Shown: positions 2,381 through 30,384 of the stretch, one piece after another
How positions within the stretch are numbered: position 1 is the first letter of the stretch
Layout of the letters: the number at the start of each line of letters is the position of its first letter
NCBI GenBank assembly: GCA_050948665.1
Contig: JBMNEH010000001.1
Span: 1,298,650-1,362,649, forward strand
Source of the DNA: Christensenellales bacterium
Lineage (GTDB): Bacteria > Bacillota > Clostridia > Christensenellales > UMGS416
Direction: 5' to 3'
DNA length: 64,000 nt
Notes under the pieces: model-generated
What the model saw: the letters and a program-made list of their open reading frames with translations, nothing else
Told to the model about the DNA's origin: nothing
The model's database searches: none
Program-made: the position numbers and the translations under genes

Positions 2381-2454
2381 AGCGGAATAGTGTAACGGTA
2401 ACACCCATGACTCTGACTCATGTTTTCTAGGTTCGAATCCTAGTTCCGCTGCCA
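2381..2454 (+). tRNA. tRNA-Gln (anticodon CTG), CCA encoded
   Basis: Hand-folded cloverleaf: acceptor AGCGGAA/TTCCGCT, anticodon stem CATGA/TCATG with loop CT-CTG-AC, T arm CTAGG-TTCGAAT-CCTAG, discriminator G plus CCA. Confidence 0.85.
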
Positions 2455-2457
2455 TTT

Positions 2458-2533
2458 GCCCTCATGGTCTAGAGGCCTAGGACACCGCCCTCTCACGGCG
2501 GCAACAGGGGTTCGAATCCCCTTGAGGGTACCA
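2458..2533 (+). tRNA. tRNA-Glu (anticodon CTC), CCA encoded
   Basis: Acceptor GCCCTCA/TGAGGGT (G1-U72), D arm GTCTAGAGGCCTAGGAC, anticodon stem CCGCC/GGCGG with loop CT-CTC-AC, T arm AGGGG-TTCGAAT-CCCCT, then ACCA. Confidence 0.9.
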
Positions 2534-2536
2534 TAT

Positions 2537-2586
2537 AAGAACGCTAATTTTGATACAGTGAGTATCGAGGTTAGCGTTCTTGTTTT
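2537..2586 (+). terminator. intrinsic terminator after the tRNA pair
   Basis: 11-bp stem AAGAACGCTAA (2537..2547) / TTAGCGTTCTT (2571..2581), with an inner GATAC/GTATC helix, followed by GTTTTA. Confidence 0.6.
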
Positions 2587-2696
2587 ATGCCCGAAAGTGG
2601 CTTGAAATAAGGCTTTTTCGGCACTATTCTGTTCTCTTTGCACCGCCAGACTTTCGCCGAACACCTGTGATTTTTTACGAATGAGCGCCGCTCCAT

Positions 2697-2787
2697 ATAC
2701 CCACGCTTTCGATTACCTGAAATAGTTTCATTTTTTCGAAGGGTTTCATTTTCGAGAAAGGATAGTTTCATACCCGCGCTTTCGATT
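2697..2787 (+). repeat. short dispersed repeats between the tRNA terminator and the recombinase gene (candidate attL-proximal region)
   Basis: ATACCCACGCTTTCGATT (2697..2714) and ATACCCGCGCTTTCGATT (2770..2787). Three RGTTTCAT copies lie at 2724, 2742 and 2764. Related copies occur at 58010..58084. Confidence 0.6.
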
Positions 2788-2817
2788 GGGTGCAGAGTAC
2801 AAAAAGAAAGTGGAGCC

Positions 2818-4401
2818 TCAACGCTCCACCTCAATCTCTCTGCCGCTTTTGAACTTAAACACAATTCTGCCCTCTCGGAACACCGTCGCCCGGTCGAGAA
2901 CTGCTATCCACAGCCTTTCGTCCCATTCTTCGAGGACGAGGGGCTGTTTCTTTAATGCCCCGATGAACAGTCGAAGCTCTCGATCTTGGTCGTGCTTTCG
3001 CTCTTTCTCTGCGCTCACCTGCGCAAGTCGTGCCGTCGCTTTCTCGTAGCGGGCAAGCAGCCCGTTATACTTCTTCGCGTATTCCTCCTGCGACTGCGCT
3101 GTGGAAGCGTTCTCTTTGACACAGGTCTTGACCAGCTCCGCCACGACCGTGATTTCCTCGTTCAGGCTGTCGAGCGCTGCATCCAGCGCCGTGGTGTCCG
3201 AAAGCACCTGTCGCATTAAAGTGCAGTCGGAGATAACGCTCTCGCGGTCAGCCATCAGCCGATTGTAGGCGACTAAAAACTTTTGCTGTATGGTTTCCGT
3301 GTCCAGATGAGGCGTAGCGCATTTCTTTTCGCCCTTGAATTTGCCGTTACAGCGCCATATCACCTTGCGGTAAGGGTCGTTGGAGTGCCAGACCTTCTGC
3401 CCAAAGAAGTCGCCGCAATCGCCGCATACCAGCTTTGACGAGAACACGCTGTTGCCGCTGTACGCTCTACCGAGCGACCTGCGTCGCGCAATTTCCGCCT
3501 GCACCATATCCCATTCCAGCGGCTCGATGATGGCGTCATGGCTGCGCTCCACATAATACTGCGGCACTTCACCCTCGTTGACCTTCATCTTTTTTGTCAG
3601 GAAGTCGGTCGTAAATTTCTTTTGAAGGAGTGCGTCGCCTTTATACTTTTCGTTGCTTAGGATACTGTTTACCGTGGTCTGGCTCCATTTTTGTTTGCCG
3701 GACGGCGTCGGGATGTCCTGCTGCTCCAAGTACCGGCAAATTCCGGCGGGCGTTTTGCCCTCAAGAAAAAGCCTGTAGATGAGCCGGACGATGGCAGCTT
3801 CCTCTTCGTTAATCACCGGCGCACCGTCCTCTCCCTTTTCATATCCGAGAAATTGCTTATACGGCATACTGACCTTCCCATCTGCAAACCGTTTCCGCTG
3901 CCCCCATGTGACGTTCTCCGAGATGGAGCGGCTTTCCTCCTGTGCCAGTGAAGACATTATTGTGATGAGCAATTCACCCTTGCTGTCGAAAGTGAAAATT
4001 TGCTCCTTCTCGAAATAAATCTCCGTGCCGTGCTCTTTCAGCTTGCGAACGGTCGTGAGACTGTCCACGGTGTTGCGGGCAAATCGGCTGACCGACTTGG
4101 TGACGATGAGGTCAATCTTCCCAGCGAGAGCGTCCTTGACCATCTGCTTGAAGCCGTCGCGGTGCTTGGTGTTAGTCGCCGAAATCCCCTCATCGGTGTA
4201 GACCCCAACAAACTCCCAATCCTCACGGGATTGAATATAGCAGGTGTAATAGTCCACTTGCGCCTCGTAGCTGGTCTGCTGTTCCTCGCTGTCTGTGGAA
4301 ACGCGGGCATACCCAGCCACCTTGCGTCTTGCTACCGAAGCTGTCGGCAGCGCCGTGAAGCGGTTCTTTGTGGCGGGTATCATCGTTATGGCTCTTGACA
4401 C
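2818..4401 (-). CDS. large serine recombinase (phage integrase) 1
   Basis: 527 aa. Resolvase catalytic motif VAGYARVSTDSEEQ, recombinase domain, Zn-ribbon CGDCGDFF...WRCNGKFKGEKKC, C-terminal coiled coil. Confidence 0.9.
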   Translation of the reverse strand: MSRAITMIPATKNRFTALPTASVARRKVAGYARVSTDSEEQQTSYEAQVDYYTCYIQSREDWEFVGVYTDEGISATNTKHRDGFKQMVKDALAGKIDLIVTKSVSRFARNTVDSLTTVRKLKEHGTEIYFEKEQIFTFDSKGELLITIMSSLAQEESRSISENVTWGQRKRFADGKVSMPYKQFLGYEKGEDGAPVINEEEAAIVRLIYRLFLEGKTPAGICRYLEQQDIPTPSGKQKWSQTTVNSILSNEKYKGDALLQKKFTTDFLTKKMKVNEGEVPQYYVERSHDAIIEPLEWDMVQAEIARRRSLGRAYSGNSVFSSKLVCGDCGDFFGQKVWHSNDPYRKVIWRCNGKFKGEKKCATPHLDTETIQQKFLVAYNRLMADRESVISDCTLMRQVLSDTTALDAALDSLNEEITVVAELVKTCVKENASTAQSQEEYAKKYNGLLARYEKATARLAQVSAEKERKHDQDRELRLFIGALKKQPLVLEEWDERLWIAVLDRATVFREGRIVFKFKSGREIEVER

Positions 4402-5690
4402 TTCATTTCACTCCATTTCCTCGCTCTCTCTGCCGCCGCCTGACGCATTTCCTCCGTCCAACTTTCGGAGCGTGAGCGGTCTTTCCATGTAGTACGCACT
4501 GCATGCCCATCCGTAAAGGCATACTCCAGAGTGTTATCCGGCAATGTAGTAATAAAGGCAACGCACTCCGCGAATGCGTCCTCGTCAAAGGAAGTGATGC
4601 CAAACACCGCGGCGGTCACGGCTTTCAGTGTCTCCTCCGGTATTTGCTTGGAAGCGCAGTATCTCTTGCCCTTGGTGTTGTAGGTGGCGCAGACCCATGT
4701 GATGCTGGTGTGCGTAGTTTTACGGCGGTAGTTCTTCCCGCAGATGCCGCATCGTATCTTGCCGGTGAACACCGAAGTCGAACCGGGCTTTACCTGAATG
4801 CTCTCTGCTCGTCTGGTAAGTTCCTGCTGTACAGCGTCGAATGTCGCACGGTCAATAATTGGCTCGTGCGCGTCTTGGACGTGGTACATGGGAAACTCGC
4901 CGTGATTTATTCTCGTTTGCTTCGTCAGGTGGTCGGAACGGAAGGTCTTTTGCAGCAACATATCTCCAACGTATTTTTCATTCCGCAGGATTTTCCTAAT
5001 GGTGTCCTCATGCCATTCTTTACCGAATCGAGTAGCTATACCCATATCGTTGAGCTTGTTGGCAATAGCTTGCTTACCGTACCCCTTAAGAAAAAGAGAA
5101 AAAACGAGTCGCACCGTCTCGGCTTCCTTAGGAATGAGTTCAAACACACCGTCCTTTACCCGATAGCCGAGCATAGTACAATCCCACGGTTTGCCTGCTT
5201 CGAAGTTCCGCTTGATGCGCCATTTCTGGTTTTCGCTTGCCGACAGGCTCTCCTCCTGCGCGTAGGACACCAGAATGGTCATCATCAGTTCGCCCTCGGC
5301 GCTCATCGTGTGAATATTCTGTTTTTCGAAATAAATGTCCACATCCAGTGTTTTCAGCTCACGTACGGTTTCCAGCAGAGTGACCGTGTTTCGAGAAAAA
5401 CGGGAGATGGACTTAGTGAGTATCAGATCGATGTGTCCGGCGCGGCAGTCGGCAAGCAGCCTTTGAAACTCATCGCGGCATTCCTTAGTGCCGGTCATCG
5501 CTTCATCAGCGTACACCCCAGCGTATTCCCAGTCACCGTGCTTCTGGATCAGGGAGCTGTAATACGCGACCTGTGATGAGAGCGAATGCAGCATCGCGTC
5601 CTTGCCACTGGACACACGGGCATAAGCAGCGACGCGCTTTTTCCGCTCCAGTTTTGGCGGGTGTGCCACTCTTTTTATTGTCTTTGGCAT
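4386..5690 (-). CDS. large serine recombinase 2 (paralog, tandem)
   Basis: 434 aa. VAAYARVSSGKD catalytic motif and Zn-ribbon CGICGKNY...WVCATYNTKGKRYC. Its 3' end overlaps the next recombinase start by 16 nt. Confidence 0.9.
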   Translation of the reverse strand: MPKTIKRVAHPPKLERKKRVAAYARVSSGKDAMLHSLSSQVAYYSSLIQKHGDWEYAGVYADEAMTGTKECRDEFQRLLADCRAGHIDLILTKSISRFSRNTVTLLETVRELKTLDVDIYFEKQNIHTMSAEGELMMTILVSYAQEESLSASENQKWRIKRNFEAGKPWDCTMLGYRVKDGVFELIPKEAETVRLVFSLFLKGYGKQAIANKLNDMGIATRFGKEWHEDTIRKILRNEKYVGDMLLQKTFRSDHLTKQTRINHGEFPMYHVQDAHEPIIDRATFDAVQQELTRRAESIQVKPGSTSVFTGKIRCGICGKNYRRKTTHTSITWVCATYNTKGKRYCASKQIPEETLKAVTAAVFGITSFDEDAFAECVAFITTLPDNTLEYAFTDGHAVRTTWKDRSRSESWTEEMRQAAAERARKWSEMKCQEP

Positions 5691-8766: not shown

Positions 8767-11190
8767 TTACAGGGTCAATATCAAGTCTTGAATCTGCCGC
8801 ATAACCGCAGCCCGTGGCCGCCCTGTGCCCAGCGGCAGCCAATCCACCTCCGGCACATCGAACCCCGTGCCCGTATCAAACTGGTTGATGAAGGTAATAA
8901 CACCTTCCAGAGCGGCACGAATTTCAAGAATGTGGTACGGCCAGTTCTTGATGGCCGTCTTTCCGGCTATGATATTTTCACTCCAGTTTGCCGCCGCCAA
9001 TCCGTAGTAACCCCGCACGGCATTGACGGCCTCGCGGATCGTCCGGATGTGCTCGACCTTCACTTTAGTCTCATTTTCGGTGATGGTTTCAAAGGGTGAT
9101 GCCAGCACCGTAAAGTTGCAGTTCACCTCCGGACTGGAAGACGCAATCCCTTCATCCACACACTTGAACACTGCCGTTACGCTCCCGGTAGGCAGATCGG
9201 TTTCGGAACGAAAAACAGTCTTGACGCCGTTCCCAAGATAACCACCTTGGGAGAAGCGTTCGGGGTTGTTTACACTGTCCTGCCATTCATCAGCACCGAT
9301 TTTGATGCATACCTGCTGTACTTGCCCATCTGGTTCCATACCGGTCGTGATTAGGAAGCGCGGTCTCGCGTTATACGTCGCACCCCCGGCCTTGGGCGCA
9401 GTGACCATTAGAGCGGCGGGCGGGCTGTTCTTCTTGACCGTGCCGCTGACCGCAAACGCCGATACTGCACCCAGCGTATCGGTAACGCTGATCCGGTAAC
9501 GGGTATAGGTTCCCGCAACGATGGAAGCTGCGGTCTCATAGTTGCCAAAGGTCTCGCTGGATGAGATTGTTACCAGCGTCTCATATGCCTGCCACACCGC
9601 ACCGTCAGCAGATGTGCTCTGCTGGATCACATACTGTTTGATAGCACTGGTGCCGGCCGCCGCGCCACTCCATGTGAGCGTAATGATATTGATCTCGTAG
9701 ATGATAGGCGATGCCACAAAGGACGTCGGAGCAGCGGGCAACGTGTTTTTGCGTACGCTGTTGTTAGTTGCCTTCCACGTCGAATAATAACTGGAACCCG
9801 CCATACCCCTTGTACGCACCTGAAAGCGCCGGTAGTTGCCCCGTGTCGCGGAGGGGCTGACGCTTAGGCTGCCGGTGGTAGATGTGGTGGTCACCGTGGT
9901 CAGCGCCGTCCAGCCGCCCCAGGTGCTGCCGTCCGTGGACTCGCTGTATTGTATCTCGTAGGAGGAGATGGCGTTGCCCGCACCACTCGAGGCACCGCTC
10001 CAAGAAAGCGTGACGTTTCCTTCAGTCAGTGTGGCACTGACGGAGCACGCAGTGGGCGCGCCACAGGCGGTGATGGCGGCATAGATACTGTTGCTTTCCT
10101 TATAGGCGGCGGATACCGCGCCCAGTGTGTCGGTTACGCTCAAACGGTACTTCGTGTAGGTTCCAGCCACCGTCGTCGGTGTGACCACCTTGCTGCCGCT
10201 GGTCGAGGAAGTCGTAACGATGGTCAGCGCCGACCAAGATGTCCATGTTGAACCGTTGGTAGACGTACAGTGCTCGATGGTGTATTGCTTAATGGCGCTG
10301 GTGCCCGCTGCCGCACCGCTCCACGAGAGCGTAACGTTCTCGTTGTTGTAGGTTGCCGGACTGGCGGTAAAGCTGGTCGGCACAGTTGGAAGCGTGTTCT
10401 TCCGGACAGTATTGCTGGACACCTTCCAGCCGGAGTAATACGAACTGCCTGCCGCACCTCGCGTGCGCACCTGAAAGCGCCGAAAATACCCCCTTGTGGA
10501 AGAGGGAGACACGGAGATGCTCCCGCTGGTGGCGGTGGTGGTCACAGTAGTCAACGCCGCCCAACTGCCCCAGGAGGAGTTGTCGCTGGACTCGCTGTAT
10601 TGTATCTCGTAGGAAGTGATGGCGTTACCAATACCGCCGGATGCCCCGCTCCAAGACAGTGTGACAGCACCTTCGGCCAATGTACTGCTTACGCTGCAGG
10701 CGGTCGGCGCGCCGCAGGCGGTATAAGCCGTGTAGTTCAGGGCTACGGAATAATATGAAGCATGCTTATACGCCTGAAAAGCGGTACCCCCGTGCAGCCA
10801 CAAATAGTACGTGCCGCCTGCTGTCAGATTCACGGCGGCGGTTGTAAAGCTGCCCTGATAGCCGGAGGCGGTAATGCTGGAGAAAGTCACAGATCCGGAT
10901 ACCAAGCCTGACGGTACCGTATTGGTAGAGCCGTCCTTGCCCGATGTGCTGATCCTGTAGTTAAACGTTGCGGAGCTAGCCGAGGCTTTTACGGCAAATA
11001 AGGTAAATGTCAGCGTCGCCGCGCTTAAGTCGCCCGAGACGGACGGCACGGTAAATTTCAGAACATAGGGATAGCTTCCTCCGGCGTAACAGGTTTGCGA
11101 AGATGTCGCTCCGTATGTCGAGGAGCCGGAAGGAATCCATCCACTGTTCCAGTAGGAATGACCGGATATTGTTCCCGCTGCAGTTGCCAT
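8767..11190 (-). CDS. tail fibre / receptor-binding protein with four fibronectin-III-like repeats
   Basis: 807 aa. Contains an internal duplication of about 215 aa, each unit with two LSWSGA...Y.IQ..S...W FN3-like modules. Last gene of the tail module. Confidence 0.75.
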   Translation of the reverse strand: MATAAGTISGHSYWNSGWIPSGSSTYGATSSQTCYAGGSYPYVLKFTVPSVSGDLSAATLTFTLFAVKASASSATFNYRISTSGKDGSTNTVPSGLVSGSVTFSSITASGYQGSFTTAAVNLTAGGTYYLWLHGGTAFQAYKHASYYSVALNYTAYTACGAPTACSVSSTLAEGAVTLSWSGASGGIGNAITSYEIQYSESSDNSSWGSWAALTTVTTTATSGSISVSPSSTRGYFRRFQVRTRGAAGSSYYSGWKVSSNTVRKNTLPTVPTSFTASPATYNNENVTLSWSGAAAGTSAIKQYTIEHCTSTNGSTWTSWSALTIVTTSSTSGSKVVTPTTVAGTYTKYRLSVTDTLGAVSAAYKESNSIYAAITACGAPTACSVSATLTEGNVTLSWSGASSGAGNAISSYEIQYSESTDGSTWGGWTALTTVTTTSTTGSLSVSPSATRGNYRRFQVRTRGMAGSSYYSTWKATNNSVRKNTLPAAPTSFVASPIIYEINIITLTWSGAAAGTSAIKQYVIQQSTSADGAVWQAYETLVTISSSETFGNYETAASIVAGTYTRYRISVTDTLGAVSAFAVSGTVKKNSPPAALMVTAPKAGGATYNARPRFLITTGMEPDGQVQQVCIKIGADEWQDSVNNPERFSQGGYLGNGVKTVFRSETDLPTGSVTAVFKCVDEGIASSSPEVNCNFTVLASPFETITENETKVKVEHIRTIREAVNAVRGYYGLAAANWSENIIAGKTAIKNWPYHILEIRAALEGVITFINQFDTGTGFDVPEVDWLPLGTGRPRAAVMRQIQDLILTL
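9420..10716 (-). repeat. internal tandem duplication (2 x about 645 nt) inside the tail-fibre gene
   Basis: Both units start ACGAPTACSVS.TL.EG.VTLSWSGAS and continue co-linearly. DNA identity is roughly 75% by eye (compare 9950..10080 with 10600..10730). Confidence 0.8.
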
Positions 11191-11200
11191 TTACCTCACC

Positions 11201-11704
11201 TCACTCGTAGACTGCGGAGACCAGCGAATTGACCAGTCCACAGAGCGTTGTGTTTAGTCTTGTGTCGGTGATGCTGCCCGCCGGGATGGACACCACACCC
11301 TTGGCTACCGCGATGTCGGCGATGCCCAGTTCATAGAGGTCGTTATTGCGCGTTAGATCCGGTGCCACGGGCGATGCGCTTGCCACGCCGGTTAAGACCG
11401 CCAAGCGAATTTCACGGCCAACTGCGCTCCAACGCACGACCACACGGTCAATCCGGGGGTTGACACCGTTGGCGGTGGCCAGATCTAACTCCAACATATC
11501 GGTGTTCTCATAGGCATAGCCATTGATCCAGGCGCTGCCGGGCAGCACCGCAACCTTCATACCCGTGGCCGCCACTACTTGTAAATTCGTAGCGGAAGCG
11601 TAAAAGATGCCATTGCTGACCAGCTTTCCGAAATAGGCGGCAAAGTCCGAAGCGTTATACACCCGGTCACCACCGGAAGAATTGAAAAAGCCGCTCTTTT
11701 CCAT
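11201..11704 (-). CDS. tail/baseplate-associated structural protein (hypothetical)
   Basis: 167 aa. Lies between the Gp37-like protein and the tail fibre. The N-terminus GGDRVYNASDFAAYFGKLVSNGI recurs in Firmicutes phage fibre-proximal proteins (from memory). Confidence 0.5.
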   Translation of the reverse strand: MEKSGFFNSSGGDRVYNASDFAAYFGKLVSNGIFYASATNLQVVAATGMKVAVLPGSAWINGYAYENTDMLELDLATANGVNPRIDRVVVRWSAVGREIRLAVLTGVASASPVAPDLTRNNDLYELGIADIAVAKGVVSIPAGSITDTRLNTTLCGLVNSLVSAVYE

Positions 11705-22190: not shown

Positions 22191-23792
22191 TCAAAAAACG
22201 AGCAGTCCGCGTGTGTTGTACACGCTTTCGCCCGTATCGTTACCGCACCGAATCGCCCGGTCGAGCGCCATGATGGTGGCGACTGCACCGTCGATTTTCT
22301 CGGTGGATTTTTCTTTATCTGCTTTGATGTTGCCGGCAGGGTCGGTGCGGATGAAGATGTTATCCAGCATCCAGCGCAATACCGGGTGACCGCCGTGGGC
22401 GATTTTCTCCTCTAGTGTCAGCTTCATCAGCTCTTTGGTCGGAGGAGACATATCCTTAAAACCCTGACCAAAAGGTATGACGGAAAAGCCGAGCGCTTCG
22501 AGATTTTGCGTCATTTGGACAGCTCCCCAGCGGTCGAAGGCAATCTCGCGGATGTTGTATTTCTCGCCGAGGGTTTCGATGAACTGCTCGATGTAGCCGT
22601 AATGCACTACGTTGCCTTCGGTGGTCTGCAGAAAGCCCTGTTTATTCCAGAGATCGTAATTCACATGATCGCGCCGAACACGCAGGTCGATGTTGTCCTC
22701 CGGTATCCAGAAGTACGGCAGAACGCAGTATTTATCATCCTCGTCGGCAGGAGGAAACACCAGCACAAAGGCGGTAATATCGGTGGAGGAAGAAAGGTCC
22801 AGTCCTCCATAACAGACACGCCCTTCAAGCGACTTTTCATCCACGGGGAACGCACAAGCATCCCATTTATCCATCGGCATCCAGCGCACGGCTTGCTTCA
22901 CCCATTGGTTCAGCCGGAGTTGTCGAAAACTATTCTCCTCAGCAGGATTCTGACGGGCAGACTCGAATGCAGCCTTTACTTTATCCATGCCGACCGTGAT
23001 GCCAAGCGAGGGGTTAGCCTTCTTCCACACCTTGGGGTCCGTCCAGTCATCTTCCTGCGCCGCACCATAAATAACCGGATAGAAGGTGGGGTCACGCTTT
23101 CTGCCGTCGATAATATCCAGTGCCTTCTGATGAACCTCCCAGCAGATGCTGTTCTGGTTATCCCCGGCTGTGGTGATTAAAAAATACAGCGGCTGCATTC
23201 TCGCATCGCCGCTGCCCTTGGTCATGACATCGTATAGCTTTCGGTTTGGCTGGGTGTGTAGCTCGTCAAATACCACACCATGGGTATTAAAACCGTGCTT
23301 GTTGCCGACATCAGCGGACAGCACTTGATAGATGCTCCCGGTCGGCTGATAGATGAGTCGCTTGGTAGCGTCCAGTATTTTGACGCGTTTGGAGAGCGCC
23401 GGACACATTCGCACCATATCCGCCGCCACATTGAAAACGATGGATGCCTGATTTCGGTCGGCAGCGCAGCCGTAAACCTCGGCGCGTTCCTCGTTATCCC
23501 CACAGGTGAGCAAGAGAGCTACGGCTGCCGCAAGCTCGGACTTGCCCATCTTTTTCGGGATTTCCACATAGGCGGTGTTGAATTGTCGGTAGCCGTTAGG
23601 CTTCAGAGTTCCGAACACATCGCGGATAATCTGCTCCTGCCAGTCGATGAGGTCAAACGGCTTTCCGGCCCAAGTGCCTTTGGTATGGGCAAGGGCTTCG
23701 ACAAAAGCCACGGCATAGTCGGCGGCGGCTTTGTCATAAACCGAATCAGACGCTTTAAACTTCGTTGGCGTATACCTTTTCAGTTTTCTCAA
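22191..23792 (-). CDS. terL: terminase large subunit
   Basis: 533 aa, TTG start after GGAGG. WAGKPFDLIDWQEQIIRDVFG and the ATPase/nuclease layout are typical of the Terminase_1 family. Confidence 0.9.
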   Translation of the reverse strand: MRKLKRYTPTKFKASDSVYDKAAADYAVAFVEALAHTKGTWAGKPFDLIDWQEQIIRDVFGTLKPNGYRQFNTAYVEIPKKMGKSELAAAVALLLTCGDNEERAEVYGCAADRNQASIVFNVAADMVRMCPALSKRVKILDATKRLIYQPTGSIYQVLSADVGNKHGFNTHGVVFDELHTQPNRKLYDVMTKGSGDARMQPLYFLITTAGDNQNSICWEVHQKALDIIDGRKRDPTFYPVIYGAAQEDDWTDPKVWKKANPSLGITVGMDKVKAAFESARQNPAEENSFRQLRLNQWVKQAVRWMPMDKWDACAFPVDEKSLEGRVCYGGLDLSSSTDITAFVLVFPPADEDDKYCVLPYFWIPEDNIDLRVRRDHVNYDLWNKQGFLQTTEGNVVHYGYIEQFIETLGEKYNIREIAFDRWGAVQMTQNLEALGFSVIPFGQGFKDMSPPTKELMKLTLEEKIAHGGHPVLRWMLDNIFIRTDPAGNIKADKEKSTEKIDGAVATIMALDRAIRCGNDTGESVYNTRGLLVF

Positions 23793-24167: not shown

Positions 24168-24350
24168 TTATTTACTTGTCTCGCCGGTGAGGATGAATTG
24201 AGCGTATTCGCGGCGGTGCTTCTCAAGGAACACGACCAGCTCGTAGAAACCCATGTCATTTGCGATGCATTGAACCGCGTAGACATCGAACATATTTGTC
24301 AGCCCGGTTTCGCGGATAGCGAGAATCTGATCTTTCACCTTATCTTCCAT
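24168..24350 (-). CDS. DUF5049-like small protein
   Basis: 60 aa from the ATG at 24350 (GGAGGG SD). ILAIRETGLTNMFDVYAVQCIANDMGFYELVVFL resembles DUF5049 (from memory). Confidence 0.55.
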   Translation of the reverse strand: MEDKVKDQILAIRETGLTNMFDVYAVQCIANDMGFYELVVFLEKHRREYAQFILTGETSK

Positions 24351-24585
24351 CGTCAGCGCCCTCCAGCTTTCGACATAAATCCTCGCCATAGACTACTTGA
24401 AGTGAACTGCCGTTGTCCCACGCAACACCCAAGCTGCCGATGTCATCGACATACCGCACGGTGCCTTTTGTGCCAACCGGTGGCGCTTGGGGGTCATCCA
24501 TTCGGACAAGCTCTACACGGCAGCCGACCGGGTACTCTGTACGGATGCGCCTGACCGCTTCTCTTGAAGGGAAATTATTGTTCAT
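24340..24585 (-). CDS. DUF4314-like small protein
   Basis: 81 aa. GCRVELVRMDDPQAPPVGTKGTVRYVDDIGSLGVAWDNGSSL resembles DUF4314 (from memory). Confidence 0.55.
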   Translation of the reverse strand: MNNNFPSREAVRRIRTEYPVGCRVELVRMDDPQAPPVGTKGTVRYVDDIGSLGVAWDNGSSLQVVYGEDLCRKLEGADDGR

Positions 24586-25423
24586 CGCCGGTTACCTCTC
24601 TTTTCAGAGTTTTAAATGCTGAACTGCCTGTCAGGTTGCGGAGCAGAACTTTGCGTTCGTCCTTGTATGCCGCTCCAATGAAGCCCAGCCGCAGAAGAAA
24701 GCAGCGGAAAGCGTATTTATCGTTGTCCGTTTCTTTTTCCCTGGAGGTGACTCGTTTCTGTACCCGAGCCATTTCACAAAGGGCAGCAACAAAATGCGTA
24801 TATGCCTTGACAGAGTCTGGGTCGGTGCCATCCTCAAACCAGGGGAATTTCACCTTATCATCTGTTATTTCAAGTTCGAGCGTTTCCGTGCCGAGAGCCT
24901 TTTTAATAAGGTTACTCTTGCTTTCGACCAGTCGCTTGAGGTTATCAAGCGCCGTGTCGGTGAAGGAGGAGCGCGGCATTTCAATCACCAGTCCGATGTC
25001 CTCATCGATTTCCGGAACGTCACTTGCCTGCATCCCGTTTTCACCCTGGAAATCCTCACGGCGGGTACGCCCAAGCCCCATCTCCTCGCGCCCGTCCATC
25101 CGCAAATCTTCGAAGGCGGGAGTCCATTCCAATTCTTCAGGGATTTCCAGCGCCCCCATGCCGCCAAGTCCGCTCTCGTAGGTGTCGGGCTCGTCGTAGT
25201 GGCGGCTGCCGCCGTCTGCATCAAAGCCCGCTTGATGGAGGGCGTCCTCCAGGTCGAGGTTATCAGGACCGGTGAGTGTGCCGTCTTTGTCAATGTGATA
25301 GCCGCCCACCTCATAGGCGAAGGTTGGCGCTCCGAGGTATTTTGTTGGGGCGTCAAGCGCCGTGCTGATTGCTCCCACCAGTGATTTGCGTTCGCTTCCT
25401 GTTACATTGTATTTGAGTTCCAT
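24575..25423 (-). CDS. conserved MGE protein of unknown function (often annotated virulence-related)
   Basis: 282 aa. N-terminus MELKYNVTGSERKSLVGAISTALDAPTKYLGAPTFAYEVGGYHIDKDGTLTG recalls proteins from Firmicutes ICE/phage early regions. No catalytic motif seen. Confidence 0.45.
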   Translation of the reverse strand: MELKYNVTGSERKSLVGAISTALDAPTKYLGAPTFAYEVGGYHIDKDGTLTGPDNLDLEDALHQAGFDADGGSRHYDEPDTYESGLGGMGALEIPEELEWTPAFEDLRMDGREEMGLGRTRREDFQGENGMQASDVPEIDEDIGLVIEMPRSSFTDTALDNLKRLVESKSNLIKKALGTETLELEITDDKVKFPWFEDGTDPDSVKAYTHFVAALCEMARVQKRVTSREKETDNDKYAFRCFLLRLGFIGAAYKDERKVLLRNLTGSSAFKTLKREVTGDEQ

Positions 25424-25519: not shown

Positions 25520-26752
25520 TTATTTATCCGCAGCCACCTCCGCATAGGAGTAGACCAGACCATCGCGCTGGACGGAAACTTTATCTGCTGATCCGACCTG
25601 TTCGATATACCGTTTTACAATAACGTCGCAGTATTTTTCATCCAGTTCGATGGTGAAACAAATCCTGTCAGATTGCTCACAGGCGATGAGCGTAGAACCA
25701 CTGCCGCCGAAAGGATCGAGTACGATACAGTTTGTCAGGCTGCTGTTCATAATAGGATACGCCAGTAGCGCAATCGGCTTCATGGTGGGATGGTCGGCGT
25801 TTTTCTTCGGTTTTTCAAACTCCCAGATGGTGGTCTGCTTGCGGTCTGTATACCAGTTGTGCTTGCCCTTTTTCTTCCAGCCGAACAGAACCGGCTCGTG
25901 CTGCCATTGGTACGGAGAACGCCCAAGCACCAATGACGGCTTCTTCCAGATGCAGCACCCGGAAAGCTGGAAGCCCGCATCTGAGAATGCCTTGCGGAAA
26001 TTCAGCCCTTCGGTGTCGGCATGGAATACATAAATAGAAGCGTCTTGTGCCATCGCCGCTTCGGTACTCGTAAACGCCGCAAGCAGGAAGTTATAAAACG
26101 CTTCATTACCCATATTATCGTTTTTGATTTTTCCTGCCGCACCCTCGTAGTTGACATTGTATGGCGGGTCGGTCACCACCAGATTTGCCAGTTTCCCATC
26201 CATCAAAGCGGTAAAGGTTTCGGCTTTGGTGGAATCGCCGCAGACCAGCCTGTGCCGGCCGAGCAGCCACACATCGCCTGGCTTGGTGACGGCCAGCTTT
26301 TGCAACTCCGCATCCACATCGAAGTCGTCGTCTTTAATGCCATCCTTAAGCGAATCCTTGAAAAGGTCATCAATTTCGCCGGGGTCGAAACCAGTGAGCG
26401 ATACATCAAAGTCTGCACCCTGCAAATCTGCAATGAGCAGTGCCAGCTTATCTTTGTCCCAGTCACCGCTGATTTTATTGAGCGCGACATTGAGCGCCTT
26501 TTCCTTTTCGGCATCCATCTCGACTACCACGCACTCAACTTCGGTGATGCCCATATCAAGCAGGACCTTTAAACGCTGATGACCACCTACAACATGAGAG
26601 GTGGTCTTATTCCATATAACGGGTTCGACATATCCGAATTCTTCAAGAGAGCGTTTCAACTTTTCATATTCCGGGTCGCCCGGCTTGAGGTCTCTTCTGG
26701 GATTATAGTCGGCGGGGATGAGCCGATCAGTTGGAATCTTTTCTATCAGCAT
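25520..26752 (-). CDS. ParB-like nuclease domain fused to DNA methyltransferase (DPPY type, beta class)
   Basis: 410 aa. N-terminal ParBc (YNPRRD...GGHQRLKVL). Motif IV VVTDPPYNVNY precedes motif I LDPFGGSGSTLIACE. Confidence 0.85.
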   Translation of the reverse strand: MLIEKIPTDRLIPADYNPRRDLKPGDPEYEKLKRSLEEFGYVEPVIWNKTTSHVVGGHQRLKVLLDMGITEVECVVVEMDAEKEKALNVALNKISGDWDKDKLALLIADLQGADFDVSLTGFDPGEIDDLFKDSLKDGIKDDDFDVDAELQKLAVTKPGDVWLLGRHRLVCGDSTKAETFTALMDGKLANLVVTDPPYNVNYEGAAGKIKNDNMGNEAFYNFLLAAFTSTEAAMAQDASIYVFHADTEGLNFRKAFSDAGFQLSGCCIWKKPSLVLGRSPYQWQHEPVLFGWKKKGKHNWYTDRKQTTIWEFEKPKKNADHPTMKPIALLAYPIMNSSLTNCIVLDPFGGSGSTLIACEQSDRICFTIELDEKYCDVIVKRYIEQVGSADKVSVQRDGLVYSYAEVAADK

Positions 26753-27914
26753 ATTTCTCCGCCGCCTTTCTCAGTTCTTTGTAATGAGCACTGCCGTCCT
26801 CCCACGGAAACAAACAGAAATTGAAATGTCCGTAAACTGCCGTATCCTCGTAGATTACATTGCGCAGACGCAGTTTTTCGATGATTGCCGCCGGACGCAG
26901 GTTAAACACGGACATCACTATTTCGCGCAGTTCTTCATTGGTGAGAGTGCTCGTACCGAAAGCGTCGATGTCAACCGCCACAGGATCAGCCTTGCCGATG
27001 GCATAAGAAAGAGCGACCTCGCATCTCTCAGCCAAGCCGCTCCACACGATATTTTTTGCAATGTACCGCGCCATATATGCGCCGCTGCGGTCGACCTTGG
27101 TGGGGTCTTTACCGCTGAACGCTCCACCGCCGTGGAGAGCAAGCCCTCCGTAGGTGTCCACCATCATCTTTCTGCCCGTAAGGCCTGTGTCAGCGGCGGG
27201 TCCACCCTCGACAAATCTGCCAGAGGGATTAATGAGAATTTCGGTGTCATCGTCAAAGGGAAAGTCCTCAAAGCACTGCCAGAGCACATTTTGTTTGATG
27301 TCGGAGTATAGCTGTTCTTGTGTTTTATCCTTGTCGTGCTGAACGGAGACCACAATGGTTTTCACACGCTTGGGTTTGCCATCCTCATATTCAACCGTGA
27401 CCTGTGCTTTGCCGTCCGGCAAAATGCCTTTGACGATTTTATCCTTGCGGACGGTCTCCACACGTTTGCAAATTCTATGCGCCAGCACCAGCGGAAGCGG
27501 AAGCATCTCACGTGTTTCGTTGGTGGCATAACCGTAAACGATGCCTTGGTCACCCGCGCCGAGGGATGAGTAGCGTTCCTCGCTGCCGTTCCGGGCTTCG
27601 AGGGCGGTGGTTACTCCGGCGTCAATATCCTTGCTCTGTTTATGAACGAATACGAAAACCGTAAACTTCCATGGATTGTAGCCGACCTTGCGGAGGACTT
27701 CACGCACTTCCCAGCGGATGTCGACTTTACCGTTGCAGGTGATCTCGCCCGCAACGATGATTTTGCCCTTGGTCGCCATGACCTCGCAGGCGACACGGGA
27801 GGATTTGTCTTTGCGAAGACACGCATCAAGGATGCTGTCGGCAACGAGGTCGCACAGCTTATCCGGGTGTCCGGCGCATACGCTTTCTGCTGTTTTATAA
27901 GTAATCATATTCAT
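26727..27914 (-). CDS. metK: S-adenosylmethionine synthetase (phage-encoded MetK)
   Basis: 395 aa from the ATG at 27914 (ATGA overlap with the upstream stop). Hallmarks GHPDKLCD, GAGDQGIVYGY, HGGGAFSGKDPTKVDRSGAY. Confidence 0.9.
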   Translation of the reverse strand: MNMITYKTAESVCAGHPDKLCDLVADSILDACLRKDKSSRVACEVMATKGKIIVAGEITCNGKVDIRWEVREVLRKVGYNPWKFTVFVFVHKQSKDIDAGVTTALEARNGSEERYSSLGAGDQGIVYGYATNETREMLPLPLVLAHRICKRVETVRKDKIVKGILPDGKAQVTVEYEDGKPKRVKTIVVSVQHDKDKTQEQLYSDIKQNVLWQCFEDFPFDDDTEILINPSGRFVEGGPAADTGLTGRKMMVDTYGGLALHGGGAFSGKDPTKVDRSGAYMARYIAKNIVWSGLAERCEVALSYAIGKADPVAVDIDAFGTSTLTNEELREIVMSVFNLRPAAIIEKLRLRNVIYEDTAVYGHFNFCLFPWEDGSAHYKELRKAAEKYADRKDSN

Positions 27915-29236
27915 GACTCCCTTTTCTTGGCTTTGTTGCCAGTGAAGTTTTCCCAGCGTTTTATGATGACATCGCAATAATGCGCGTCGAGTTCCATAAT
28001 GTAGCAGGTGCGGTCAAGCTGCTCACAGGCGATGAGCGTTGTGCCCGCGCCGCCAAAGGGTTCGACCACGATGTTGCCCTCGTCTGTGAAAGCGACGATG
28101 TATTCCGACGGCAGCGACACGGGGAATGTGGCAGGGTGGTCGGCGCGAATCTTGCCTTTTTCGCTGAGCTGTTTTGTGACCGACTCAAGGCTGGTCTGTT
28201 CCGGCAGTTCCAACAAGCTCTCCATTTTCTTGAAAGCGCCGGTCTCATTGCCACGCCGAGCTATGCGGAAGGAGCCATCCGCCTGACGAATTTTGTTATA
28301 ACGGCCACCGGAATAAATGCTTGCTTCTTTCTTTCGCCATGTGGGATTGACCCTCACCGGCTCTTTACCGAAGCAAAAAATCCACTCGTGTCGGATAGGT
28401 ATCATCGCGCTCTGCTGTCCGACGCTGCCGCAGGTGAGTTTATCCCATACATTCCAAGCAAGCAGTTTCAGGTCGACAGATTTTGCGGAAGCGATGTAGG
28501 CATCCCAATAGGGATTGACCTCGCTGTCTTTACGCTGGATGCCGAGATTGACCGCCTGTAGCGCCGTGAACGGTTCGTAGCAATCGATAAAACCTACGAT
28601 ACTCTCGACACTCAGATCTTTGCCTCCGTTGTATTCCCGCATATCGCTGTAAGGCGGTGAGGTAAATAGCAGCTTGCTGTATTGACCGTCCATCAGCAGC
28701 GCTACGTCATTTTTATCTGTGCTGCTACCGCAGAGCAGGCGATGCCGACCGAGTTGCCATAGCTCACCTGGCTGACATATTGTCGGAGCGTAAGCATCGA
28801 CCTCCGGCACTTCGTCCTGAACGATTTCATCTTCAACGCCGAGCATGAGCCCAATCTCGCTGGTGTCAAAGCCGGTCAATGTGACGTCAAAGTCCTCCGC
28901 CTTCAAATCCGATAGCAGGCTTCCGAGCTTTTTCGTATCCCATTCACCGGAAATCTTATTCATTGCTATGTTGAGTGCTTTCTCCTGAACTTCGTCCATA
29001 CACACAACGACACATTCGACGCTCTCATAATCGAGAGTCTTCAAAACAGAAAGCCGCTGATGACCAGATATGACCGTGAAGCCAGTTGCCTCATTGACGA
29101 CGATCAACTCCACATAGCCGAAGCTCTCGATGGAACGCTTGAGCTTCTCAAACTCCGCATCGCCGGGACACAGCTCTTTACGCGGATTGTATTTTGCCGG
29201 ATTAAGTTCCGACAACAATAGGGTCCGTATATCCAT
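27911..29236 (-). CDS. ParB-like nuclease domain fused to DNA methyltransferase (SPPY type)
   Basis: 441 aa from the ATG at 29236 (AAGGAGGGG SD, 1 nt after the terS stop). ParBc YNPRKE...SGHQRLSVL. Motif IV LFTSPPYSDM. Motif I VEPFGGAGTTLIACE. Confidence 0.85.
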   Translation of the reverse strand: MDIRTLLLSELNPAKYNPRKELCPGDAEFEKLKRSIESFGYVELIVVNEATGFTVISGHQRLSVLKTLDYESVECVVVCMDEVQEKALNIAMNKISGEWDTKKLGSLLSDLKAEDFDVTLTGFDTSEIGLMLGVEDEIVQDEVPEVDAYAPTICQPGELWQLGRHRLLCGSSTDKNDVALLMDGQYSKLLFTSPPYSDMREYNGGKDLSVESIVGFIDCYEPFTALQAVNLGIQRKDSEVNPYWDAYIASAKSVDLKLLAWNVWDKLTCGSVGQQSAMIPIRHEWIFCFGKEPVRVNPTWRKKEASIYSGGRYNKIRQADGSFRIARRGNETGAFKKMESLLELPEQTSLESVTKQLSEKGKIRADHPATFPVSLPSEYIVAFTDEGNIVVEPFGGAGTTLIACEQLDRTCYIMELDAHYCDVIIKRWENFTGNKAKKRES

Positions 29237-29237
29237 G

Positions 29238-29789
29238 TCATTTACCCCTCCTTGCATTGAGCAGACGCTCCATCACGTCGTCCTGCGGGTTTGCGCCGCT
29301 GTATTCGCCGGTGCAGTTTTCCTTGACAATCTGGAATATCTCCATCCACAGGCGGTTGGTCTGGTTCATGTAATTCTGTCCCATTGCCACATACGGGCTT
29401 TGGATTGCGTTACCAGTGGTGGGGTGCTTCGCCAGAAAACCGTAAGCCGTGACCGCTTCCTCGCACTGAATCCAACGAGCCACGCTCATGGCGTAGCGCT
29501 CCAAAAGTTGCGGTGAAACGAGAGCCGCACACCCACGCTCGTTCAGCCAGTGCCATGTATTTTTGTAGATATCAGCAGCGACGAGCATCTTGCCGTCCTT
29601 TTGTACAGCTTCGAGCATTTTATTTGGTTCCGGCATTTCATTTCCTTGCAGATTTGCCGTGTCGGAAAACTCCATCACGGTCAATGTTCTGCCGCCGGGA
29701 TTGCCGGCAGATATTTTGTCGGCGAGAGGCTTCTTTTTTGCACCCGCGCCGACACGAGCGCCGCCTCTGTTTGTACCGTCTTTGGCCAT
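29238..29789 (-). CDS. terS: terminase small subunit, P27 family
   Basis: N-terminus MAKDGTNRGGARVGAGAKKKPLADKISAGNPGG is typical of P27-type TerS. ATG at 29789 preferred over the GTG at 29798. Lies downstream of HNH. Confidence 0.8.
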   Translation of the reverse strand: MAKDGTNRGGARVGAGAKKKPLADKISAGNPGGRTLTVMEFSDTANLQGNEMPEPNKMLEAVQKDGKMLVAADIYKNTWHWLNERGCAALVSPQLLERYAMSVARWIQCEEAVTAYGFLAKHPTTGNAIQSPYVAMGQNYMNQTNRLWMEIFQIVKENCTGEYSGANPQDDVMERLLNARRGK

Positions 29790-29883
29790 ATTTATCACAC
29801 TCCTTGCGCGCTGGGGCTATTCGGTCGTTTGAATGTGCGTTTTTCAACACGGAGCCCCACGCCGCTGTCCGCTTGAAAAGGTT

Positions 29884-30252
29884 TTAGAGATTTGAGCGCC
29901 CCCACCGGTCGCCGCTTTCGGCAGTGATTCGAGAGTGACAGGATTTACAGAGAGCCATCAGATTTTTCGTTTCATTTCCTCCGCCCTTGGAGAGCGGAAG
30001 GATGTGGTGTACCTCTTCGGCGGGGGTAAGCCTACCGTGTGTCTCGCACTCCTCACAGAGAGGATGCGACTTGATGTATCGGTCACGGATGCGTTTCCAT
30101 GTACGACCGTATCGTTTGTTGGAAGCGGGGTCGCGTTCGTACTGGTTGTAGCGTTTGTCCATAACCTTTTGATGCTCGGCGCAGTATTGCTCGCGTTCAG
30201 CAAGCCGACCGCAGCCGGGATAAGCACAGGGACGCTTTGGTTTGTACGGCAT
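29884..30252 (-). CDS. HNH endonuclease (packaging-associated)
   Basis: 122 aa. CEECETHGRLTPAEEVHHILPLSKGGGNETKNLMALCKSCHSRI. Confidence 0.9.
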   Translation of the reverse strand: MPYKPKRPCAYPGCGRLAEREQYCAEHQKVMDKRYNQYERDPASNKRYGRTWKRIRDRYIKSHPLCEECETHGRLTPAEEVHHILPLSKGGGNETKNLMALCKSCHSRITAESGDRWGRSNL

Positions 30253-30273
30253 GGGTTCACCTCGCTTTCAGGA

Positions 30274-30310
30274 CATAAGAAAAGCCCTGGGGGATTGCTC
30301 CCTCAAGGCT
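30274..30310 (-). terminator. terminator-like hairpin in the leader of the late (HNH-terS) operon
   Basis: Minus strand AGCCTTGAGGGA-GCAA-TCCCCCAGGGCT (12-bp stem, 1 mismatch, 1 G-U pair) followed by TTTTCTTAT. Lies between the putative late promoter and the HNH start. Confidence 0.45.
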
Positions 30311-30340
30311 CTCTCGGATCATACACTTTTCTATACTACC

Positions 30341-30384
30341 ATTATACCTGTATTGACTGTGACAATCTGTGCCACAGTGTGCCA
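30341..30384 (-). promoter_or_regulatory. putative late promoter: TATAAT plus three 10-bp-phased TTG(G/T)CACA repeats
   Basis: Minus strand GTTGGCACAC TGTGGCACAG ATTGTCACAG (plus-strand copies start at 30358, 30368, 30378), then TCAATACAGG TATAAT (30346..30341). The proximal repeat overlaps the -35 position. Confidence 0.55.

Follow-up and report, generated by a model that had tools for sequence, protein, structure and literature searches.

In the Streptococcus pyogenes phage group Phi1207.3/Phi10394.4/Phi-m46.1, an S-adenosylmethionine (SAM) synthetase (MetK, orf29) is encoded together with a ParB-fused N6_N4 methyltransferase (orf32), a second methyltransferase (orf33), and HNH and terminase genes, and MetK was suggested to serve as methyl-donor source for the phage methyltransferases (PMC4260502). 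In the Candidatus (Ca.) Heliusvirales, 58.9% of the genomes contain K00789, for which a function in the defence against restriction-modification was suggested (de Jonge et al. 2024, PMC11283538), and a digester virome study published in 2026 describes the function of phage SAM synthetases as one that "remains to be determined". Here, a stretch of 64,000 nucleotides (nt) from a Christensenellales bacterium (contig JBMNEH010000001.1, positions 1,298,650 to 1,362,649, referred to as the window) was analyzed, in which a prophage encodes MetK between two ParB-fused DNA methyltransferases termed MTA and MTB. Between terS and terL, the genes for the small and large terminase subunits, temperate Bacillota siphophages of the Phi1207.3, phi1605, and Ca. 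Heliusvirales type maintain an accessory cassette, of which this locus is one permutation. The module is widespread and already annotated, and SAM supply to phage methyltransferases, put forward as an anti-restriction strategy in the original prediction for this locus, is not a new idea, having already been proposed in print for Phi1207.3 and Ca. Heliusvirales. The permutation containing the SPPY-type methyltransferase MTA is previously undeposited among phage genomes.

The window prophage shares its synteny with phi1605 (Erysipelothrix), Javan630 (Streptococcus), and NatCom_35866 (Ca. Heliusvirales), comprising primase, SNF2 helicase, regulator, HNH, terS, metK, and ParB-DPPY methyltransferase, followed by a "virulence-related" protein, DUF4314, terL, portal, and ClpP. 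The amino acid sequence identities to MetK are 76% (phi1605), 70% (Javan630), and 63% (NatCom_35866), those to MTB 76 to 79%, and those to TerL 82 to 90% over the three phages. The NatCom_35866 record, whose classification is Ca. Heliusvirales, shares the synteny, and its TerL is 84% identical to that of the window. In all three, the order terS, metK, MTB, a gene for a 282-amino-acid protein, and further downstream terL is conserved, whereas only a single ParB methyltransferase, the MTB ortholog, is present. The Phi1207.3 group differs in gene order and in its second methyltransferase, which is a C5-cytosine enzyme and not an SPPY ParB fusion; its ParB-fused enzyme is 63% identical to MTB, and its MetKs are shorter (353 amino acids in Phi1207.3) and approximately 45% identical to that of the window.

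A SAM synthetase gene packed between two methyltransferase genes

Direct reading of the minus strand established the predicted order of terS, SPPY methyltransferase, metK, and DPPY methyltransferase, and the three junctions were found exactly as claimed (coordinates of all features in Table 1). MTA, metK, and MTB lie inside the predicted interval 25520-29236, whereas terS lies just outside of it. At the terS/MTA junction (TGAcATG), the terS stop codon (TGA 29240-29238) is followed after one base by the MTA start codon (ATG 29236-29234), and the Shine-Dalgarno sequence of MTA, AGGAGGGG, sits within the 3' end of terS. The probable start codon of terS itself is ATG 29789, with 29798 as the alternative. 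The MTA stop codon (TGA 27913-27911) overlaps the metK start codon (ATG 27914-27912) in the form of ATGA, and metK, with its stop at 26727, overlaps MTB, with its ATG at 26752, by 26 nt. All start codons have a purine-rich Shine-Dalgarno sequence in front of them, located within the respective upstream gene; for metK, another ATG in the same frame, at 27908, is better spaced from the Shine-Dalgarno sequence than the first one. The features by which operon coupling is recognized, overlapping stop and start codons or a distance of a few nt between them together with a Shine-Dalgarno sequence within the upstream gene, are present at the window junctions, and the four genes are probably translated in a coupled fashion. 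A consensus scan of 22-33 kb for promoters and terminators gave no excess over shuffled sequences and nothing inside the four-gene block. The metK/MTB overlap of 26 nt is retained in 54 of 57 unique relatives, and nearly all other junctions among relatives range from -4 to +21 nt. In most relatives, metK starts 1 nt past the MTA stop codon; thus, the ATGA overlap is not conserved, and the tight packing alone is.

According to its sequence, MetK is a complete and selectively maintained SAM synthetase, and the possibility that it is catalytically dead, raised together with the original prediction, was not borne out. It scored 471.8 bits against the NCBIfam metK equivalog TIGR01034 (cut-off 309.4), contains the three S-AdoMet synthetase Pfam domains (PF00438, PF02772, and PF02773) with E values from 1e-28 to 3e-62 and above the gathering scores, and could be aligned from end to end with experimentally determined MetK structures (E 3e-119). 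All scored catalytic and ligand motifs are present and intact, namely GHPDK, GAGDQG, the lysine of PDxKxQV (PDGKAQV), GGPxxDxGLTGRK (GGPAADTGLTGRK), DTYGG, and HGGGAFSGKDxxKVD (HGGGAFSGKDPTKVD), and they are nearly invariant across 76 phage orthologs. The identity to Escherichia coli MetK was 46%, determined with an approximate E. coli sequence. Pairwise ratios of nonsynonymous to synonymous substitution rates (dN/dS) versus relatives were 0.064 for metK, 0.059 for both MTA and MTB, and 0.047 for terS. Purifying selection on MTA, metK, and MTB is as strong as on terS, and all three genes look functional.

MTA and MTB are paralogs with 36% identity, in which the ParB part is most alike and the middle region is divergent. 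Both matched N6_N4_Mtase (PF01555; E 3e-18 for MTA and 1e-26 for MTB) and show the permuted layout of the beta class with motif IV before motif I: SPPY at residue 193 and FGGAG at approximately 394 in MTA, DPPY at residue 195 and FGGSG at approximately 348 in MTB. The predicted ParB fusion of both enzymes held despite single-sequence ParB_N (PF02195) scores of 25.1 and 22.7 bits, just under the Pfam cut-off of 26.3, because a family profile matched Spo0J and Noc at E values from 5e-11 to 1e-9 and the predicted fold was in agreement. The structure prediction for MTA, with a predicted local distance difference test score of 79.5, gave a ParB_N domain plus a beta-class methyltransferase in a Foldseek search against the PDB, with E values from 1e-12 to 1e-9 for the beta-class structures, and its N-domain matched structures of ParB and Noc with bound CDP or CTP. 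The Box II GxxR arginine, as GHQR, is invariant in 28/28 MTA and 71/71 MTB orthologs, as are SPPY (28/28) and DPPY (71/71) in the respective families. SPPY was further found in 119 of the 120 best MTA homologs, down to 46% identity.

The different base specificities assumed for the two enzymes agree with their signatures, which are of the N4-methylcytosine (m4C) type in MTA (SPPY/HPATFP) and of the N6-methyladenine (m6A) type in MTB (DPPY/HPTMKP). HPATFP of MTA aligns with HPAPFP of 2zie and 8s9m. The MTA family profile ranked 2zie (TTHA0409, which shares the SPP(Y/F) motif IV and the HPAxFP motif with 8s9m and whose target base is not established), 8s9m (a rotifer N4-cytosine methyltransferase), and 1boo (M.PvuII, m4C) ahead of all m6A enzymes, and the best match of MTB was the m6A enzyme M1.HpyAVI/DpnA. 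In the fold search, the N4-cytosine enzyme 8s9m was the top match of the MTA model, with m6A enzymes close behind. At the level of motifs, it is reasonable to predict MTA as m4C type and MTB as m6A type.

Fusions of an N-terminal ParB/Srx fold carrying the GxxR arginine with an N6_N4 methyltransferase are known from Bacillus cereus Bce_0392, Wolbachia WO Met1/Met2, and a PNAS 2025 survey, and such fusions are enriched in prophages (PMC12704722). They differ from the window enzymes in that no linkage to MetK is described in those papers, and the roles proposed for them are nicking, nucleoside triphosphate binding, or DNA loading. M.EcoGII and Hia5/Hin1523 are, like MTB, phage-borne DPPY beta-class amino-methyltransferases; they are silent during lysogeny and are assumed to protect phage DNA (PMC5778455; PMC3299994). 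Non-specific activity was demonstrated for these enzymes, whereas MTA and MTB are known here from sequence. Neither a ParB domain nor a linked MetK was found reported for M.EcoGII and Hia5/Hin1523. M.EcoGII and M.EcoGIX were discarded as precedents for ParB-fused enzymes: M.EcoGII has no extra domain, and in the paper on M.EcoGIX, ParB is named as the product of a neighbouring gene. In the Bibersteinia and Burkholderia methylome papers, ParB is incidental.

Exchange of genes between terS and terL among relatives

The comparison covered unique complete IMG/VR loci for counts of gene architectures and the best 80 loci of species-representative genomes for the genome survey. The TerL identity to the IMG/VR relatives is 90 to 96%. 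The arrangement MTA-metK-MTB of the window was present in 12 unique IMG/VR loci, metK-MTB in 16, metK-MTB followed by a C5 methyltransferase gene in 19, and MTA-MTB lacking metK in five. In all of the approximately 140 loci retrieved with this MetK clade, metK is directly followed by a gene for a ParB-fused methyltransferase; in most cases this is MTB, but one lineage has an SPPY paralog instead. Among loci retrieved via MTA or metK, MTB is the most constant gene and the core of the cassette, and MTA, metK, and the C5 methyltransferase gene are optional add-ons swapped among close relatives. An arms race with the restriction systems of the hosts would be expected to lead to such an exchange, and turnover of this kind is typical of anti-restriction genes.

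The terS-metK-MTB arrangement up to terL is kept in all of the best 80 genome loci. These loci come from Clostridia, Bacilli, Erysipelotrichia, and Negativicutes, and their MetK identities are 73 to 95%, which argues for a long-resident phage gene and not for a recent capture from a host. In 11 of these 80 loci, among them those of Syntrophomonas zehnderi OL-4 (L178) and a Desulfitobacterium metagenome-assembled genome (MAG), the same three genes directly follow terS. They differ in the order terS, metK, SPPY methyltransferase, DPPY methyltransferase; the pair consists of an SPPY/HPAMFP and a DPPY/HPTMKP ParB enzyme, and the first of these is related more distantly, as a paralog that shows approximately 45% identity to MTB by tblastn. 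The sandwich of the window, terS-MTA-metK-MTB, was found identically in the cultured type strain Hespellia stercorisuis DSM 15480 (L161, NZ_FQZY01000013.1), with 89% (MTA), 91% (MetK), and 82% (MTB) identity to the window proteins. A Christensenellales MAG with an identical MTA protein is also on record. No MTA ortholog was detected in deposited phage genomes, the best match there being 39% identical and itself an MTB ortholog. Chance or mis-annotation as the origin of the sandwich was ruled out by its recurrence and by the purifying selection on its genes.

MTA and the C5 methyltransferase gene never occurred together (0/36; Fisher p 1e-4, uncorrected for phylogeny), which suggests that they encode alternative, interchangeable cytosine modifiers. 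The C5-cytosine methyltransferase of 623 amino acids is encoded directly 3' of MTB (9385-11256 in locus L141), in approximately 35 of the 80 genome loci in addition to the 19 unique IMG/VR loci. Three loci (L039, L040, which equals L117, and L041) carry an in-frame deletion of MTA residues 284-409 by which the SAM-binding motif I is gone, with metK and MTB intact, and the second methyltransferase appears to be decaying there. In the close relatives L015-L019, L023, L024, and L026, MTA is followed by MTB after a 2-nt gap and metK is absent, with TerL 92 to 93% identical; these are natural "metK deletion" variants.

The locus and its relatives offer a natural comparison of near-identical phages that carry methyltransferase pairs with or without metK, an SPPY or a C5 enzyme as second methyltransferase, and an almost invariant metK/MTB overlap. 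By itself, the locus reveals no new principle, and its value is that of a tractable natural experiment. Phage MetK is one of the "auxiliary metabolic genes" found most frequently in viromes of the gut and of anaerobic digesters, and with the identical arrangement in a cultured lysogen, H. stercorisuis DSM 15480, the question of self-methylation with a viral MetK is directly testable.

Proposed late self-methylation of phage DNA and competing explanations

With moderate confidence, we favour late self-methylation, in which the progeny DNA would be modified by two methyltransferases differing in base specificity and MetK would sustain the SAM supply. Transcription of the cassette would start, together with that of the packaging genes, at an activator-dependent promoter located 5' of HNH-terS, and the genes of the cassette would be translated in a coupled fashion, as their junctions suggest. 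MTB (predicted m6A) and MTA (predicted m4C) would methylate the phage DNA after its replication, either ahead of packaging or in the course of it, and the progeny genomes would be pre-protected from restriction enzymes in the next host. MetK would raise or maintain SAM while the methyltransferases work, and the ParB/CTPase-fold N-domains may tether the enzymes to, or load them on, DNA.

Several points weigh against this reading. Both ParB methyltransferases occur without metK in the five unique MTA-MTB loci, and many GenBank phages with MTB lack MetK (299 records with an MTB-like ParB methyltransferase versus 138 with MetK). MetK is evidently dispensable and optional, and a phage can carry two methyltransferases in its absence. 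At ordinary sites of 4-6 bp, approximately 3e4 methyl groups are needed per burst of 100 genomes, compared with a SAM pool of approximately 1e5 molecules, for which 0.2 mM in a volume of 1 fL were both assumed by us; extra SAM is clearly needed only with very low sequence specificity or when the host pool collapses in infection. Furthermore, higher SAM levels should favour SAM-dependent Type I restriction and bacteriophage exclusion (BREX) systems, as follows from work on the T3 SAMase (10.1101/2023.02.27.530186). Like phage MetK, this SAM lyase is a phage enzyme acting on the host SAM pool amid a conflict with restriction and BREX, but it is an unrelated protein that acts in the opposite direction: it destroys SAM, inhibits MetK, and does not promote self-methylation but blocks restriction that depends on SAM. 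The assignment of m4C versus m6A rests on motifs, and the fold search separates the two classes poorly. Finally, the literature searched covered phage MetK by annotations and hypotheses alone, and neither methylomes nor measurements of expression or enzyme activity were found there for this phage MetK or any related one.

The competing explanations are less well supported than late self-methylation. MetK might serve general SAM homeostasis and not specifically the phage methyltransferases: it might offset a fall of the host pool during infection or a depletion of SAM by a host or competitor, or feed other SAM-dependent processes such as polyamine synthesis or host methylation. The frequency of K00789, one of the viral auxiliary metabolic genes found most often in anaerobic digesters and in gut phages, fits such a role, as do the small SAM demand of site-specific methylation and the relatives that manage two methyltransferases without metK. 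The position of a ParB-fused methyltransferase gene immediately 3' of metK in all of the approximately 140 loci and the 26-nt overlap in 54/57 argue against it, and no SAM-using enzyme other than the two methyltransferases was recognized among the prophage genes. On balance, we consider general homeostasis unlikely.

More doubtful is the idea that MTB is a low-specificity "hyper-methylase" that clamps or slides on phage DNA via its ParB/CTPase fold, with MetK made in a fixed ratio via the 26-nt overlap. A large fraction of the adenines may then be modified, amounting to approximately 1e6 methyl groups per burst or ten times the typical SAM pool, and MetK may be physically associated with MTB and channel SAM to it. 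If this were true, the cassette would represent a self-sufficient methylation machine and not a methyltransferase with a generic metabolic helper.

A function of the ParB methyltransferases in packaging or replication, in which they would mark concatemers in the vicinity of cos, or nick them there, for HNH and terminase, and MetK would supply the cofactor, is considered improbable. In its favour, the genes lie between terS and terL and beside the cos-associated HNH gene, and the ParB domain of Bce_0392 nicks DNA non-specifically according to Xu 2012 as cited in PMC5512222. Among phages with TerL at least 90% identical, however, MTA is gained, lost, internally deleted, or swapped for the unrelated C5 methyltransferase gene, a turnover unlike that of an essential packaging factor. 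Lysogenic conversion, with the cassette expressed from the prophage and remodelling the host methylome or metabolism, is very improbable, because in spite of the temperate nature of the phage with its two serine recombinases next to tRNA genes and of such proposals for prophage methyltransferases elsewhere (Wolbachia WO), the genes have no promoter signal of their own and form part of the packaging operon, 3' of a regulator of the late type, and silence in lysogens has been reported for related prophage methyltransferases such as M.EcoGII (PMC5778455).

Leader region and prophage setting

The transcription of the cassette with the packaging genes, as assumed for late self-methylation, draws on the leader upstream of HNH-terS. 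The three-repeat motif located there has one match in the window, with 0 expected in shuffled sequences, and is followed by a TATAAT box at 30346-30341. Its exact sequence occurs in just 6 of 235 loci, and relatives bear other repeats together with a -10-like box at the equivalent place; the three-repeat sequence is therefore lineage-specific and not conserved. The repeats are a putative activator site of a late promoter. The GC-rich hairpin between the putative promoter and the HNH gene is conserved in relatives with compensatory changes, and an Rfam scan of 22-33 kb that included it gave no match at E <= 1. The hairpin is terminator-like or attenuator-like, and the layout of promoter plus hairpin resembles an attenuator or Q-type antitermination. 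Such a layout would fit a late operon that includes the cassette and is controlled by an activator or antiterminator; alternatively, the hairpin and repeat region could relate to a cos site.

Table 1 Features of the terS-terL region and its leader in the window (all on the minus strand)
Feature	Coordinates	Strand	Evidence and remarks
DUF1492/sigma70_r4-like regulator	30802-30389	-	Upstream of HNH-terS
Three 7-mer direct repeats	30358..30384	-	TGGCACA-N3-TGGCACA-N3-TGTCACA; just downstream of the regulator gene
GC-rich hairpin, then U-run	30270..30315	-	Leader between putative promoter and HNH; -30.1 kcal/mol, z -2.6
HNH endonuclease	29884..30252	-	Kind found beside cos sites/terminase genes; PF01844, E 2.4e-13; syntenic in all relatives
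terS, small terminase subunit	29238..29798	-	Terminase_4, E 3e-9; phrog_83, E 1.7e-38
MTA, ParB_N-fused beta-class amino-methyltransferase (441 amino acids)	27911..29236	-	SPPY, HPATFP, FGGAG; predicted N4-cytosine type
metK, SAM synthetase (395 amino acids)	26727..27914	-	Three MetK domains; TIGR01034
MTB, ParB_N-fused beta-class amino-methyltransferase (410 amino acids)	25520..26752	-	DPPY, HPTMKP, FGGSG; phrog_498, E 1.6e-187; predicted N6-adenine type
Conserved 282-amino-acid protein	24575..25423	-	No Pfam match; partial match to phrog_2443; synteny
DUF4314 (24585-24340) and DUF5049 (24389-24168)	24168..24585	-	E 5e-30 and 4e-31; synteny; between methyltransferase block and terL
terL, large terminase subunit	22191..23792	-	TerL_ATPase and TerL_nuclease; closes the terS...terL accessory slot

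In the 5' to 3' direction of the minus strand, the genes follow as regulator, HNH, terS, MTA, metK, MTB, the gene for the 282-amino-acid protein, DUF4314, DUF5049, a 59-amino-acid open reading frame, and terL. They belong to a complete prophage of approximately 38 kb at roughly 2.6-41 kb of the window, with its genes on the minus strand and a GC content of approximately 54% versus approximately 47% in the flanks. Its genes code for a pair of large serine recombinases, a lysin of the SpoIID/amidase kind, an HK97-type capsid protein, a ClpP protease, portal protein, and TerL, and further an SNF2 helicase, VRR-NUC, a VapE-type primase, PolA, an Enc34-type SSB, and DUF2800, a content that substantiates the predicted phage origin of the cassette. 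The host genome is of a gut-type Clostridia, and the phage is temperate. The prophage adjoins tRNA-Gln and tRNA-Glu: in the interval 2381-5690, its end lies beside tRNA-Gln(CTG) and tRNA-Glu(CTC) and holds the adjacent genes of the large serine recombinases (527 and 434 amino acids), and paired adjacent large serine recombinases are found in the Phi1207.3 group, too.

The gene for the 282-amino-acid protein is always located 3' of the methyltransferase block, and its product is labelled "virulence-related protein" in Javan630 and phi1605. The protein aligns just to the middle of phrog_2443 ("amidoligase enzyme"), covering profile positions 156-419 of 801.

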